From: a virus
Taxonomy: Duplodnaviria; Heunggongvirae; Uroviricota; Caudoviricetes
Reading direction: 5' to 3' (one strand)
IMG/VR virus record: IMGVR_UViG_2740892270_000010
Length of the DNA stretch: 4,574 nucleotides
Below, in pieces: positions 1 to 4,574 of the stretch (position 1 is its first letter; each line of letters begins with the position of its first letter). The translations under genes and the position numbers were made by a program. The notes under the pieces were generated by a model. The model worked only from the letters and a program-made list of their open reading frames with translations, had not been told where the DNA came from and did no database searches.

Positions 1-172
1 GAGCACTTATAAATAACAGCCGTTAATATAAATTGGCTAATAGATTTATTTTTATTCAGTCAAGAGCCATGAATAGGATTCGATAGAAAAAAGTTCAGAT
101 AAAAATAGAGATCTACTTCACAAATCAAACGAGAAACCAAAACTTACATCTTGAAATAATCACATTGATTAG

Positions 173-1249
173 ATGAATATTTATCGCGCAATGACATCAT
201 TTTTTAATAATATGATGGCGATGTCTGCTCAGGCAGCTGAAATTTATAATAAAGACAGTAACAAGCTGGATCTGTACGGGAAAGTTAATGCTAAGCACTA
301 CTTCTCCTCTAATGATGCAGATGATGGTGATACTACTTATGCCCGTCTTGGCTTCAAAGGTGAAACCCAAATCAACGATCAACTGACTGGTTTCGGTCAG
401 TGGGAATATGAATTCAAAGGCAACCGCGCTGAATCTCAAGGTTCCTCCAAAGATAAAACCCGTCTTGCCTTCGCTGGCCTGAAATTCGGTGACTACGGCT
501 CCATCGATTACGGCCGTAACTACGGTGTAGCATACGACATCGGTGCGTGGACTGACGTCCTGCCAGAATTCGGTGGTGACACTTGGACTCAAACAGATGT
601 GTTCATGACTGGTCGCACCACTGGTGTTGCAACTTATCGTAACAACGACTTCTTTGGTCTGGTTGATGGTCTGAACTTTGCTGCTCAGTATCAGGGTAAA
701 AATGACCGCACTGACGTAACTGAAGCTAATGGTGATGGTTTCGGTTTCTCCACTACTTATGAGTATGAAGGATTCGGTGTAGGTGCAACCTATGCTAAAT
801 CTGACCGCACTAATAATCAGGTTATCTACGGTAACAACAGCCTGAATGCATCTGGTCAAAATGCTGAAGTATGGGCAGCTGGTCTGAAATATGATGCGAA
901 CAACATCTATCTGGCTACCACCTATTCTGAAACCCAGAACATGACTGTTTTTGGTAATAACCATATTGCCAACAAAGCACAAAACTTCGAAGTAGTTGCA
1001 CAATATCAGTTCGACTTCGGTCTGCGTCCGTCCGTTGCTTACCTGCAATCTAAAGGAAAAGACTTGGGTGCGTGGGGTGATCAGGACCTGGTTGAATATA
1101 TTGATGTAGGTGCAACCTATTACTTCAACAAAAATATGTCCACTTTTGTTGATTACAAAATCAACCTGATTGATAAGAGCGATTTCACGAAAGCATCTGG
1201 CGTTGCTACCGATGATATCGTTGCTGTAGGTATGGTTTACCAGTTCTAA
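173..1249 (+). CDS. nmpC: OmpC/NmpC/Lc-family outer-membrane porin (prophage moron); N-terminal signal region atypical, possibly 5'-rearranged
   Basis: 358-aa ORF. From about codon 15 ([14 protein letters not shown]...) to the C-terminal ...VGMVYQF it reads as a classical 16-strand enterobacterial porin of the prophage NmpC/Lc type, with a C-terminal Phe. The first ~14 codons ([14 protein letters not shown]) do not match the canonical MKKLTVAISAVAAS... signal peptide as I recall it. There is an in-frame TAG immediately upstream (170-172) and no good Shine-Dalgarno. Confidence 0.85.
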
Positions 1250-1258
1250 TTTGATTAC

Positions 1259-1298
1259 TAAAAGATATGTTGCGGGAGGCTTTGCCTCCCCAACATAT
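1259..1298 (-). terminator. Candidate rho-independent terminator for leftward (minus-strand) transcription, tR'-like
   Basis: Long imperfect hairpin: ATATGTTG-(C bulge)-GGGAGGC / loop TTT / GCCTCCC-CAACATAT (1265-1298). On the minus-strand RNA it is followed directly by a C + UUUUU tract (plus-strand A run 1259-1263). Confidence 0.5.
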
Positions 1299-1385
1299 AA
1301 GTGGCTCCCTCAAGCCACTTCCTTTAGGAGCACAACCTTGCTTCTAACTATATAAACCTTCTGTTATATATTACCCTTTATTTTT

Positions 1386-1412
1386 GGGGGCGTTGCAACG
1401 CCCCATTTTTAA
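1386..1412 (+). terminator. Candidate rho-independent terminator for the porin transcript
   Basis: GC-rich stem GGGGCGT/ACGCCCC (1387-1393 / 1398-1404) with loop TGCA, followed on the + strand by ATTTTTAATAATTTTT. On the minus strand the hairpin is followed by an A-run, so it is unidirectional. Confidence 0.5.
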
Positions 1413-1437
1413 TAATTTTTAGTAAACAATTGGCATA

Positions 1438-1821
1438 TTAATTAGAGTTATTAACAACGATATCCATCTCTAACCGGATATCTAATGCCATTAACATCCC
1501 TTCAATTATGCCCTCAGCCTTCTGTAACCTTTTCCCGATATAACCATCAGAGCAGCAATGCTTACCTGCCAGTGACATGAATGTCATACCGACTACATAA
1601 TAATCTACTAATAAATCGTGCAAATCGCTGTTGTTCTTTTTCAGACGGGCCATGCACCCGCAAATAATCATCGCGTCATCGTCACAACATTGCGGGCGAG
1701 ATTTTACTTTTGAAGTAATTAATCCCTTAAAACCGGCGGCAATGGACGACCAGGTCACATCTTCATGATTATTAGCCGCCCACGCTCCCCAACGCTCAAG
1801 AACCATCTGAATATCACGCAT
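1438..1821 (-). CDS. quuD: Late-gene antiterminator Q (phage 82 / DLP12 QuuD type)
   Basis: 127-aa product [24 protein letters not shown]...[16 protein letters not shown]...[12 protein letters not shown]... recalled as DLP12 QuuD / Q82 family with Cys-rich zinc-binding motifs. ATG at 1819-1821 (minus) has GGAG 7 nt upstream. The track ORF's TTG at 1834-1836 is treated as a spurious extension. Confidence 0.9.
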
Positions 1822-2856: not shown

Positions 2857-3311
2857 TACGCCTCCTGCTTATCGCGCAGCTGCTGGTATTCACAGCTCTG
2901 CGGAATTGTCAGGTGGCAGCCGATATTCATCGCCCAGGCTTCGACTTTGCACAGGAAGATGTACATCTCGCCGGTTTCCAGCTCTGACGTATGGCGGAGG
3001 GATTGGACGGTGGTGACCTCGCCGGACACGACATCTACACGGTCTTTGCTTTCGTAGCCGAGATAGGTGTGCTTCATCGCGTCTTTGACCCACTCAGGCG
3101 TAGCGAAGGTCTTGCCGCGGGCGATGAGATATTCGCTGATCTCCGTGTACCACATGTGGCTGAGCGCGTTCTGCGACAGGCTGCGCTTCTCGCGCCACGG
3201 CTTAACCTGCAGGCGTAAGCATTGCCCGGCATCCAGCAATGGCTGAATCTGCTGGCCGATGGCCGCGAAGTTACCGCGATGGAGTTTGATGCCGTCTACT
3301 GGCAGAGTCAT
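2856..3311 (-). CDS. ybcN: NinB-family protein (YbcN-like; recombination mediator / DNA base-flipping protein)
   Basis: 151-aa product with the NinB-type motif ...WREKRSLSQNALSHMWYTEI... (compare lambda NinB ...RNRSLDQNRKLWA...). GGGAGG Shine-Dalgarno 4 nt upstream of the ATG at 3309-3311 (minus). Gene order ninB-ninE-ybcO-rusA-Q is canonical lambdoid. Confidence 0.9.
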   Translation of the reverse strand: MTLPVDGIKLHRGNFAAIGQQIQPLLDAGQCLRLQVKPWREKRSLSQNALSHMWYTEISEYLIARGKTFATPEWVKDAMKHTYLGYESKDRVDVVSGEVTTVQSLRHTSELETGEMYIFLCKVEAWAMNIGCHLTIPQSCEYQQLRDKQEA

Positions 3312-3575: not shown

Positions 3576-3953
3576 ATGACCAACAAAGAAAACAAAGATA
3601 AATATATTAACAAGTTCAAGAAAGAGCTTTCAAAATATATACAACCAACTGCTGGAGTGGACATTCAATTATTTAACTCTAAGGATGGTGGTGGTGTAAT
3701 TAAAGCCACTTTGAATAGAAGTGGAAAAAGAAAATCATCTATTGCTGGTAATTTTACTAAATTAGGTGAGGCAATTACCTCGAGTGGGCAGAGGGTTTTT
3801 GGTGGTGATCTATCAAATGTGAATTTTTACGGAACAAATACGATTTTTGATGGAGATACAATATTTTTAATTAAATCACCTGATTCAGAGGAGTGGTCAT
3901 CACAAAAAGCTTCCAAAGACGTAGAGGGCATCGTATTTGGAGGGAAAAAATGA
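3576..3953 (+). CDS. Hypothetical 125-aa Lys/Gly-rich soluble protein (AT-rich cargo gene A), function unknown
   Basis: 378-nt open frame in DNA of roughly 25-30% GC, where random frames are dense in stops. ATG start; no signal peptide or transmembrane segment; no family I recognise. A TATACT -10-like element lies at 3534-3539 upstream. Confidence 0.6.
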   Translation: MTNKENKDKYINKFKKELSKYIQPTAGVDIQLFNSKDGGGVIKATLNRSGKRKSSIAGNFTKLGEAITSSGQRVFGGDLSNVNFYGTNTIFDGDTIFLIKSPDSEEWSSQKASKDVEGIVFGGKK

Positions 3954-4035
3954 TTAACATTACTACTAAGGATGCACTCAAGTCAGTGGTGAAGTAAGAG
4001 ATCTAGTAATTCTTCTTGAAACTGATGGAAAAACG

Positions 4036-4377
4036 GTGTCTGATTATTTGCAGCCAATCCCTCCCAAAAAAGATACACACTGGAGCATGATTTTCATTCC
4101 GGTAGCAATTTATATACTACTTAATCTTGTATACATTATTGCTCACCCATTATTTCCTGAAAAATATCTAAAAACATCAACATCTATATTTCTATTCATT
4201 TCCTTCATATTAAGTGCAATAGTAGCATATTTTGTTTTCCATAAGCATAAATCTGCCACTCTATCCATATGCAGCTTAGTGTTCTTAGTGTTAATTGTAG
4301 GTGCTAACGTAGGGTTTATCAGTTACAGCGACCTAACACAAAAAGCGACGCAAAAATTAGATAGTTTGTCTAAATAA
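4036..4377 (+). CDS. Hypothetical small integral membrane protein with three predicted transmembrane helices (AT-rich cargo gene B); start codon uncertain
   Basis: Open frame in AT-rich DNA. Three hydrophobic stretches of about 20 residues (IFIPVAIYILLNLVYIIAHPLF; SIFLFISFILSAIVAYFVF; LSICSLVFLVLIVGANVGFI) separated by short charged loops. First start in frame is GTG at 4036; an internal ATG at 4087 would give 96 aa. Same strand as gene A, 82 bp downstream. Confidence 0.6.
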   Translation: MSDYLQPIPPKKDTHWSMIFIPVAIYILLNLVYIIAHPLFPEKYLKTSTSIFLFISFILSAIVAYFVFHKHKSATLSICSLVFLVLIVGANVGFISYSDLTQKATQKLDSLSK

Positions 4378-4484: not shown

Positions 4485-4574
4485 GGTGATGCTGCCAACT
4501 TACTGATTTAGTGTATGATGGTGTTTTTGAGGTGCTCCAGTGGCTTCTGTTTCTATCAGCTGTCCCTCCTGTTC
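4485..4574 (+). mobile_element. IS1 insertion sequence, left terminus (IRL) and first 90 bp; continues beyond the window
   Basis: GGTGATGCTGCCAACTTACTGATTTAGTGTATGATGGTGTTTTTGAGGTGCTCCAGTGGCTTCTGTTTCTATCAGCTGTCCCTCCTGTTC is the IS1 left end as I recall it, including the ~23-bp terminal inverted repeat. Confidence 0.9.
4540..4574 (+). CDS. insA: IS1 InsA (transposition regulator), N-terminal 11 codons only; truncated by the window edge
   Basis: GTG GCT TCT GTT TCT ATC AGC TGT CCC TCC TGT translates to MASVSISCPSC, the InsA N-terminus. Confidence 0.8.
   Translation, partial: MASVSISCPSC

Follow-up and report, generated by a model that had tools for sequence, protein, structure and literature searches.

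The DNA analyzed in this work is a stretch of 4,574 nucleotides (hereafter the window) from the caudoviral record IMGVR_UViG_2740892270_000010, and it is centered on positions 1250-1437, the spacer between a porin gene and the gene for a Q antiterminator. The window is 98-99.5% identical to Escherichia coli chromosomes across 98% of its 4574 bases, and the annotation of the best relatives and of strain K-12 identifies it as part of a decaying lambdoid prophage of the DLP12/PA-2 type, in an orientation that is flipped with respect to K-12. The porin gene, of the nmpC/lc type, occupies positions 173-1249 of the plus strand (Pfam Porin_1, E 3e-153, and porin annotation in relatives), and quuD, which encodes the Q antiterminator of 127 amino acids, lies at 1438-1821 on the minus strand (Pfam PF06530 over its full length, and quuD annotation in relatives). 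An earlier note on this DNA had described the spacer as convergent and had placed in it the late promoter pR', the Q-utilisation site and the terminator tR', from which Q-modified transcription would read antisense through the porin gene toward lysis genes left of the window. Annotation bears out the convergent arrangement as well as the position of the lysis genes, which are essD-rrrD-rzpD in the annotated relatives and in K-12. From the analyses described below we conclude, with a probability of about 80%, that two convergent transcription units have their 3' end in common in the spacer, which is formed by the small RNA (sRNA) IpeX and two opposed terminators, that the spacer is no late-gene control region, and that pR' lies outside the window. 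The structures, the identity with the ipeX locus, the assignment of Q to its family and the place where the pR' homologue lies were computed here; from the literature we took that IpeX exists, how long it is and which targets it has, as well as the mapped pR' start of a Shiga toxin (Stx) phage.

Judging from sequence and position, the spacer is the already described ipeX locus, that is, the porin 3' untranslated region (3' UTR). It shows 98% identity to the nmpC-quuD spacer of DLP12 in K-12 and 97% to the region downstream of lc in PA-2, and 36 phage records, among them PA-2 and several plaque-forming lambdoid phages, carry it with an identity of 93% or more. In the cryptic prophage DLP12, ipeX is a 167-nt RNA (PMC12197685) that is made from the porin promoter within the porin transcript and then processed out of it (PMC12197685; PMC5069750), and that represses ompC and ompF (PMC12197685; PMC5069750; PMC3333887). 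In the window, positions 1250-1416 of the plus strand, which begin right behind the porin stop codon and reach just beyond the U-tract of the terminator, make up exactly 167 nt, matching the IpeX length given in PMC12197685. Locus, near-identical sequence, length and stop-to-terminator position are all shared with the IpeX RNAs of DLP12 and PA-2; the present copy differs in the loop bases of two hairpins with respect to K-12, and in that the porin gene lacks the ribosome-binding site, the start codon and the signal peptide, so that production of the RNA is uncertain. A description from 2006 reportedly places ipeX between the nmpC stop codon and a predicted Rho-independent terminator, and an identical sequence is said to follow lc in PA-2. 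As a short, structured and terminator-ended RNA encoded beside Q in a lambdoid prophage, with a regulatory role directed at the host, IpeX resembles StxS and the lambda 6S RNA; nonetheless, those RNAs are made from pR' and end at tR', whereas IpeX runs toward Q from the porin promoter and is no by-product of antitermination control.

The spacer is highly structured. The 176-nt plus-strand RNA folds with -66.9 kcal/mol, as compared with -34.1 ± 4.1 for shuffled sequences (z -7.95), and the minus-strand RNA from 1362 to 1245 reaches -43.0 (z -4.48). The three hairpins listed in the earlier note were all recovered at their positions, and they fold far better than dinucleotide shuffles. Hairpin 1 (1265-1298) can form on both strands, with 15 pairs, one bulged base (1273), an energy of -22.2 kcal/mol, and z-scores of -7.15 and -6.47 for the plus and minus strands, respectively. 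Hairpin 2 (1299-1320) has an 8-bp stem (AAGTGGCT/AGCCACTT) and a 6-nt loop (-10.4 kcal/mol, z -4.41), and the remaining one is the stem at 1387-1404 that is discussed below as a terminator. Two additional plus-strand hairpins, found in the minimum free energy and centroid structures, had been missed, and so had a closing helix on this strand (1255-1263/1417-1425): hairpin 3 (1324-1347) has 9 pairs and the loop CAACCU, and hairpin 4 (1349-1370) is a weak 7-bp A/U stem whose loop, AACCUUCU (1356-1363), bears an anti-Shine-Dalgarno motif. The clearest evolutionary hint for pairing is given by hairpin 1: its bulge is shifted in the variant of E. coli 536 and Lambda_4C10, and in the diverged copy of E. 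coli E7-1N7 an insertion opposite the bulge makes it a base pair. The stem of hairpin 2 is cut to 6 bp in the 536 and Lambda_4C10 variants without compensation, and in hairpin 3 a common G/A polymorphism at 1328 swaps G-U for A-U (A-U in 18 spacers, G-U in 9).

On the plus strand, the porin/IpeX unit ends at an intrinsic terminator (1387-1423), which consists of the stem at 1387-1404 followed by AUUUUUAAUAAUUUUU and is the sole terminator-like site flagged by the terminator scan within the spacer. The stem (GGGGCGT/ACGCCCC) has 7 bp, six of them G-C, a 4-nt loop and the tail ATTTTTAATA (-12.5 kcal/mol, z -3.11). It is the same in 26 of 27 distinct spacers, the other one having a G-C pair changed to G-U, and the loop appears as TTGC, TCTC, TTTC or TTCC. 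The earlier note was right in that a T run follows a hairpin at a single place on each strand, after 1387-1404 on the plus strand (ATTTTTAATAATTTTT) and after 1298-1265 on the minus strand. Its proposal that each convergent unit has its own terminator holds for the plus strand, where a G+C stem-loop with a directly adjoining U-tract is a canonical intrinsic terminator; for the minus strand, with a bulged stem and a shorter U-tract, it is plausible. There, the hairpin 1298-1265 is followed by CUUUUAG (1264-1258), that is, a C, UUUU and then AGU, the tail being CTTTTAGT in the window (4 U) and CTTTTTCGT in K-12 (5 U). Hairpin and CUUUU(U) are likely to be the intrinsic terminator of the quuD operon, located before transcription would enter the porin gene in antisense. 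A strong terminator inserted into the spacer brought about no change, and the authors concluded that quuD-side transcription already stops short of the IS5 in nmpC (PMC11677980), a result that suggests one or more terminators on the quuD side.

The position of the late promoter was traced from a mapped one. In the Stx2 phage Sp5, the pR' start lies 258 nt upstream of the tR' 3' end, with an RNase E motif (GU/AUU) at +173 (PMC7547250), and both constraints fix the start at position 946 of the Sp5 locus (L007), 22 nt past the Q stop codon. This promoter has TATCAT as -10 and GTTTAC as -35, the latter inside the palindrome TTTACGATCGTAAA, and the same -35/palindrome/-10 block is found after Q homologues in Providencia and Arsenophonus. 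The Sp5 segment comprising pR', leader and terminator was compared by blastn with the 16.5-kb locus of a relative (L001) that has 99.5% identity to the window, and a single significant match was obtained at L001 5864-5782 (83 nt, 77%, E 8e-9); the alignment, of 85 columns, has an identity of 74%, which rises to 80% between the -35 and +12. With the spacer there was no match, and elsewhere in the window none was better than E 1.8. The homologue is located between the porin promoter and essD, 169 nt upstream of the latter, and on the L001 minus strand it contains GTTTAC (5864-5859), TTTACGTACGTAAA (5863-5850), TATGCT (5841-5836) and a predicted start at A5829, followed by the shared GAGTGGTTAC, the terminator AAACCCGCCGTCGAGCGGGTTTTTCCATTTTTT (5805-5773) and the essD ATG (5660). 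On this homology, pR', leader and first terminator would span L001 5864-5773 on the minus strand, which corresponds to about 577194-577285 in K-12 (NC_000913.3) and to about -137 to -228 in window coordinates. An alignment placing pR' elsewhere had been named in the earlier note as evidence against its reading, and the mapped Stx pR' does align beyond the porin gene.

A 14-bp palindrome, TTTACGNNCGTAAA (TTTACG(TA/AT)CGTAAA), overlaps the -35 of the mapped Sp5 promoter. Among the 100 loci examined it occurs exactly once in 85, which come from Escherichia, Providencia and Arsenophonus and include K-12, PA-2, 434B and Lambda_4C10, and in 76 of the 80 IMG/VR loci whose Q is 100% identical it is always about 1.6 kb past Q, beyond the porin gene. 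It is absent from the spacer even at 2 mismatches, and the window contains one chance-level 2-mismatch match, in the porin coding region. This palindrome is a candidate QuuD-binding element, in contrast with the site of Q21, which is a direct repeat. That QuuD controls the DLP12 lysis cassette is attributed to Rueggeberg 2013 in PMC7918800. The Q-responsive pR', the putative Q-binding palindrome and the first terminator would thus lie across the porin moron, just upstream of essD, and a second case of a moron between Q and the palindrome is present at locus L094. Since the pR' homologue is beyond the porin gene, late transcription would start past the porin moron and would not cross it, as opposed to the antisense route proposed earlier; and, as the moron sits between Q and pR' with a promoter, an sRNA and a terminator of its own, the gene for lysogenic conversion would be insulated from late transcription.

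Stx phages carry in addition a partial second copy of the pR' spacer words, TAAAAATC-GCATAT followed by TAAATA (Sp5, L007 1066-1103; H-19B, L003 about 3064-3100), which sits around 130 nt into the StxS leader and may match an internal start near the short StxS 5' end (PMC7547250). Phage 1H12 (L009 2879-3034) and locus L092 have a Q with about 85% identity and no porin; there, a terminator in the direction of Q, AGCCAGCCTCCCCAAAGGCTGG plus U8, close to the Stx tR' hairpin, follows Q and is in turn followed by a convergent moron encoding the lipocalin Blc, and no TTTACGNNCGTAAA was found within the flanks fetched.

The earlier note had taken Q to be of the phage 82 type. QuuD matches PF06530 over its full length (E 3.5e-53), a family that is also matched by the Q proteins of Sp5, phage 21 and phage 1H12, and Q of phage 82 matches PF06323 (E 6.4e-95); these are the Q21 and Q82 families, respectively (PMC9388147). 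QuuD thus belongs to the Q21/933W family, in which it is 78-81% identical to Q of 933W/Sp5 and of H-19B (78% for Sp5 Q) and only distantly related to Q21, whose solved structures 6jnx and 6p18 were matched at E 7.6e-7. The nin region of phage 82 is common to DLP12, which probably misled the first reading of the spacer. Comparison with the phage 82 pR' is moot given that the Q families differ, and the phage 82 record X92588 ends at the Q stop codon.

The Q proteins of the subfamily (window 1438-1460; L007, L009, L092-L097) share a common sequence up to LEMD (QuuD residue 120), after which unrelated C-terminal tails are joined to unrelated downstream DNA, a pattern that marks the end of the Q core as a recombination joint. 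Where the presumed recognition helix contains GK(R/K)L(Q/H)K, the palindrome is present at the locus; with GRMLQK, GRLLQK or GKRLYK, it was not found within the flanks fetched. The spacer modules could not be separated, as the whole spacer is present in 78 of the 80 IMG/VR loci in which Q is 100% identical, as well as in all 36 phage matches. An imperfect inverted repeat links positions 1200-1269 (left arm) and 1412-1480 (right arm), that is, the last codons, the stop codon and about 20 next bases of the porin gene and of quuD, with the sequence GATATCGTTG ... TCTAATT ... TG(A/T)TTACTAAAA(G/A)(A/T)TAT (repeats I1, I3 and I11). A gap-tolerant local alignment of the arms scores 44.5, with shuffles at 26.8 ± 4.1 (0/2000), and a stricter gap model gives p ~0.045; the porin 3' end, copied in inverted orientation, may be the source of the QuuD tail past LEMD.

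A candidate base-pairing region was identified within IpeX. On the minus strand, 1386-1345 is a copy, in diverged form, of the part of the ompC leader that immediately precedes the start codon, with the aligned stretches AAATAAAGGGTAATATATAACAGAAGGTTTATA and AAATAAAGG----CATATAACAGAGGGTTAATA; the score was 32, as compared with 16.8 ± 2.6 for shuffled sequences (0/1000). The match with the ompF initiation region was weaker (27/1000), and in the same shuffle test the ompA leader and the porin's own leader gave no significant match. Because the minus strand resembles the ompC leader, the plus-strand RNA is antisense to the ribosome-binding regions of ompC and ompF, and we define 1355-1383 of the plus strand as the predicted IpeX seed. 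With the ompC leader it would form 15 bp over AUAUAACAGAGGGUU plus 9 bp over AAAUAAAGG. CCUUCU (1358-1363) is exposed in the 8-nt loop of the hairpin 1349-1370, UUACCCUUUAUUUUU is unpaired ahead of the terminator, and the seed part at 1375-1383 is CCCUUUAUU.

Whole-length duplexfold of IpeX against its targets was replaced by cofold net energies, since duplexfold gave unrealistic full-length duplexes. The net energy for ompC is -17.2 kcal/mol, compared with -4.6 ± 2.6 for seed-shuffled RNAs (0/200), and that for ompF is -16.8, compared with -11.0 ± 2.7 (7/200); for ompA (49/200) and the porin's own leader (23/200), which served as negative controls, the result was not significant. In the cofold with ompC, the loop and the 3' arm of hairpin 4 pair with the ribosome-binding region. 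This predicted specificity agrees with ompC and ompF as the reported targets (PMC5069750). In the aligned spacers, diverged copies included, the block 1354-1393 varies only at the singleton positions 1379 and 1385. The model that follows is that IpeX may act by direct base pairing through 1355-1383, a seed that was computed here and that is not known to be part of the published description.

The seed resembles that of MicC, a chromosomal Hfq-dependent sRNA that represses ompC: positions 1363-1383, GTTATAT[ATTA]CCCTTTATT, agree with MicC (GTTATATGCCTTTATT) in 15 of its first 16 bases, with a 4-nt insertion, and both would target the same stretch of the ompC leader. Similarity between the spacer RNA and MicC is confined to the seed, and the two differ in several respects, given that the seed carries the insertion and is internal here (loop plus linker) and 5'-terminal in MicC, that the complementarity of IpeX spans the Shine-Dalgarno sequence, that the rest of the RNA is non-homologous, and that MicC is an independent gene and IpeX a 3' UTR. 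A scan for the 29-nt core in species-representative genomes gave only three E. coli records and no wider phylogenetic footprint. It is conceivable, at rather less than even odds, that IpeX, reportedly described as a regulator acting without base pairing, is instead a phage-borne mimic of MicC whose positions 1355-1383 are the inverted relic of an ompC-type leader pairing with ompC and ompF, and that RNA reading through from quuD bears the sense copy. If so, early lytic transcription could neutralise IpeX, and possibly MicC, upon prophage induction.

Taken together, on the plus strand the porin mRNA would run on for about 160 nt through four stem-loops and end at 1387-1404 plus the U-tract. The 1349-1370 loop and the single-stranded stretch (within 1355-1383) would pair with the Shine-Dalgarno region of ompC and ompF, and IpeX would lower host OmpC and OmpF synthesis, so that a lysogen expressing the phage porin would make less of both. 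On the minus strand, unmodified polymerases leaving quuD would most likely stop at 1298-1265 plus CUUUU(U).

Several observations weigh against this interpretation. The abstract of the 2006 description is said to report that no complementarity to ompC was found, which conflicts with the pairing prediction (it reportedly also states that ompA is unaffected by IpeX). A scan of the window against Rfam with a cut-off of E <= 1 gave no family. Covariation is nearly uninformative because the spacers are too similar: with about 95% identity among the 27 distinct homologues, 97.6% of the cells pair and only 2 pairs change on both sides. The minus-strand hairpin 1298-1265 was left unflagged by the terminator scan, probably because of its bulge, and it has a C ahead of the U-tract and only 4 U. 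The palindrome is proposed as a QuuD-binding element from its position and co-occurrence only. The search for mapped RNA ends in the spacer gave none on the minus strand, the supplements of the eLife 3'-end paper having no entry; the K-12 start table of Kim 2012 has no minus-strand start in the spacer either, which is weak evidence because that table covers gene-associated starts only. The long untranslated porin transcript of this copy, finally, may be shortened by Rho, in which case IpeX may not form.

The last point is related to the lesions of this prophage. In comparison with ETEC1731 and K-12, the window has a 67-bp deletion at 214/215 (L001 about 6215-6281) that takes out the ATG of the porin along with its ribosome-binding site and the greater part of its signal peptide; the porin is therefore a pseudogene here, the open reading frame (ORF) start listed at 173 being fortuitous. 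The porin promoter and start site are still present (window 138-189, by homology to K-12), and this promoter is active in K-12, where the start site corresponds to window 189 and was supported by 331 reads (Kim 2012, supplement of PMC3415461). Primer Pdlp12Fw (PMC7918800) is the reverse complement of window 221-240, which would put the lysis-cassette start given in that work (-121 to +650, after Rueggeberg 2015) on the minus strand at about window 185. There it would stand back to back with the plus-strand start of the porin, at 189 (Kim 2012); the region from about -30 to -96 of the reported lysis-cassette promoter is lost through the 67-bp deletion.

The state of this copy also gives some ground to the idea that the spacer consists of back-to-back terminators and stabilising hairpins only, with a dead porin and no trans-acting RNA: with the translation start removed, an untranslated 1-kb transcript is a likely target of Rho, the prophage has further lesions (a frameshift and an IS1), and Rfam gives no match. 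Against it, the porin gene still has its promoter and start site, intact plaque-forming phages carry the same spacer or nearly the same one, the seed block is almost unchanged even in diverged copies, and IpeX activity is documented for the K-12 sequence (PMC12197685, PMC5069750), where nmpC is also disrupted. We consider this alternative improbable, though it is the best placed of those that compete with the IpeX-and-terminators interpretation.

It has to be considered as well that the functional product could be on the minus strand, with the quuD-operon 3' UTR (1437 to about 1259) acting as an sRNA or as an antisense or sponge of IpeX that could also titrate MicC. The minus-strand RNA is structured (z -4.48) and would end in a hairpin plus U-tract like 3'UTR-derived sRNAs, its ompC-leader-like block matches the complement of the MicC seed, and short RNAs from antiterminated phage units can regulate, as is the case of StxS (PMC7547250). 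Nonetheless, there is no evidence of such a transcript, its terminator is weaker than that of the plus strand, expression of the nin/Q operon in lysogens is poor (3 reads for the start of ybcQ; PMC3415461), and all the reported phenotypes have been assigned to the porin-sense RNA, which makes this possibility quite unlikely.

The earlier proposal, in which the spacer's minus strand carries pR', the Q-utilisation site and tR' and antisense transcription runs through the porin gene to the lysis genes, has a rationale in that pR' lies within about 25 nt of the Q stop codon in lambda, phage 21 and the Stx phages. As in the cassette of the Q21-family phages (21; 933W, Sp5, H-19B), formed by pR', the Q-binding element, the sigma-dependent pause element and tR', a cognate PF06530 Q adjoins the spacer and a hairpin with a U-tract is present on the Q strand. 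The -35-like words TTGCAA/TTGAGA (1398-1393) are found behind an A/T tract, and the spacing from TAATAT/TATAAC (1373-1363) to TATAGT (1352-1347) resembles that from a promoter -10 to a sigma-dependent pause element. However, no sigma-70 promoter was detected at the scan threshold in 1250-1437 on either strand, and the best hexamer pair assembled manually on the minus strand, TTGCAA-19 bp-TAATAT, requires a non-standard spacer of 19 bp. The -10-like hexamers fall inside the ompC-leader-like block and seem better explained as part of it. Tandem 8-bp direct repeats like those of Q21 were sought by eye between the candidate hexamers, and none was convincing. The hairpin 1298-1265 followed by CUUUUAG equally fits a plain operon terminator.

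A further echo of pR' is found 11 nt after the Q stop codon, where GTTTAC-TAAAAAT (1415-1427, minus strand, read from the sequence) recalls the Stx pR' -35/palindrome GTTTACG(TA/AT)CGTAAAAAT without its central 5 bases. It has no -10 at the right distance, GGGGCG being there, and it is not kept in E7-1N7, which lacks Q; it is possibly a vestige and would be no functional promoter. Comparison of the spacer with the regions downstream of Q in H-19B, Sp5 and 1H12 revealed short words only (GTTTAC, TAAAAAT, ATATAACAG). The 9-mer shared with phage 1H12 was dropped as promoter evidence, since it is near chance (about 0.1 by a rough estimate). In contrast with the cassettes of the Q21 family, therefore, the spacer is devoid of promoter, Q-binding palindrome and homology to the mapped leader, and the true homologue is outside the window; given that Q had been assigned to the wrong type and that a full pR'-leader-terminator homologue lies beyond the porin gene in every close relative examined, we regard the presence of pR' in the spacer as very unlikely.

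Finally, a small protein starting at the minus-strand ATG 1296 (ORF1 of PA-2; CPT_434B_68 of 434B; L005 2637-2428, L004 3046), although annotated in those two public records, was rejected as hardly credible for want of a conserved frame: in the window the frame ends after 12 codons and is missing from the ORF list, a common single-T indel (46 vs 35 sequences) shifts it between variants, and it lies inside hairpin 1, antisense to the porin 3' end.

Beyond quuD, the minus strand encodes ylcG, rusA, ybcO, ninE and ybcN, in this order, and then there are two AT-rich plus-strand ORFs that belong to PHROG families of unknown function, phrog_18061 (3576-3953) and phrog_16940. Pfam gave nothing significant for either of them, the second one having only two below-threshold matches; this second ORF (3950-4377) is frameshifted with respect to ETEC1731 by a 1-bp deletion (one G) after 3973. 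An IS1 end is found from about 4486 (4486-4574), and the window ends in the terminal inverted repeat of IS1 (GGTGATGCTGCCAACTTACTGATTTAGTGTATGATGGTGTTTTTGAGG...); at the junction position, ETEC1731 has the replication gene P instead.

The finding amounts to a known sRNA locus with two terminators, in a cryptic prophage that is among the best studied. It corrects the genome map of this prophage type, in which a porin moron with its own promoter, sRNA and terminator would be interposed between Q and pR', and it offers for IpeX, whose mechanism has so far been unclear, a concrete model of base pairing. It also puts forward a candidate Q-binding palindrome for the 933W/DLP12 branch of the Q21 family, which would bear on the control of Shiga-toxin expression.

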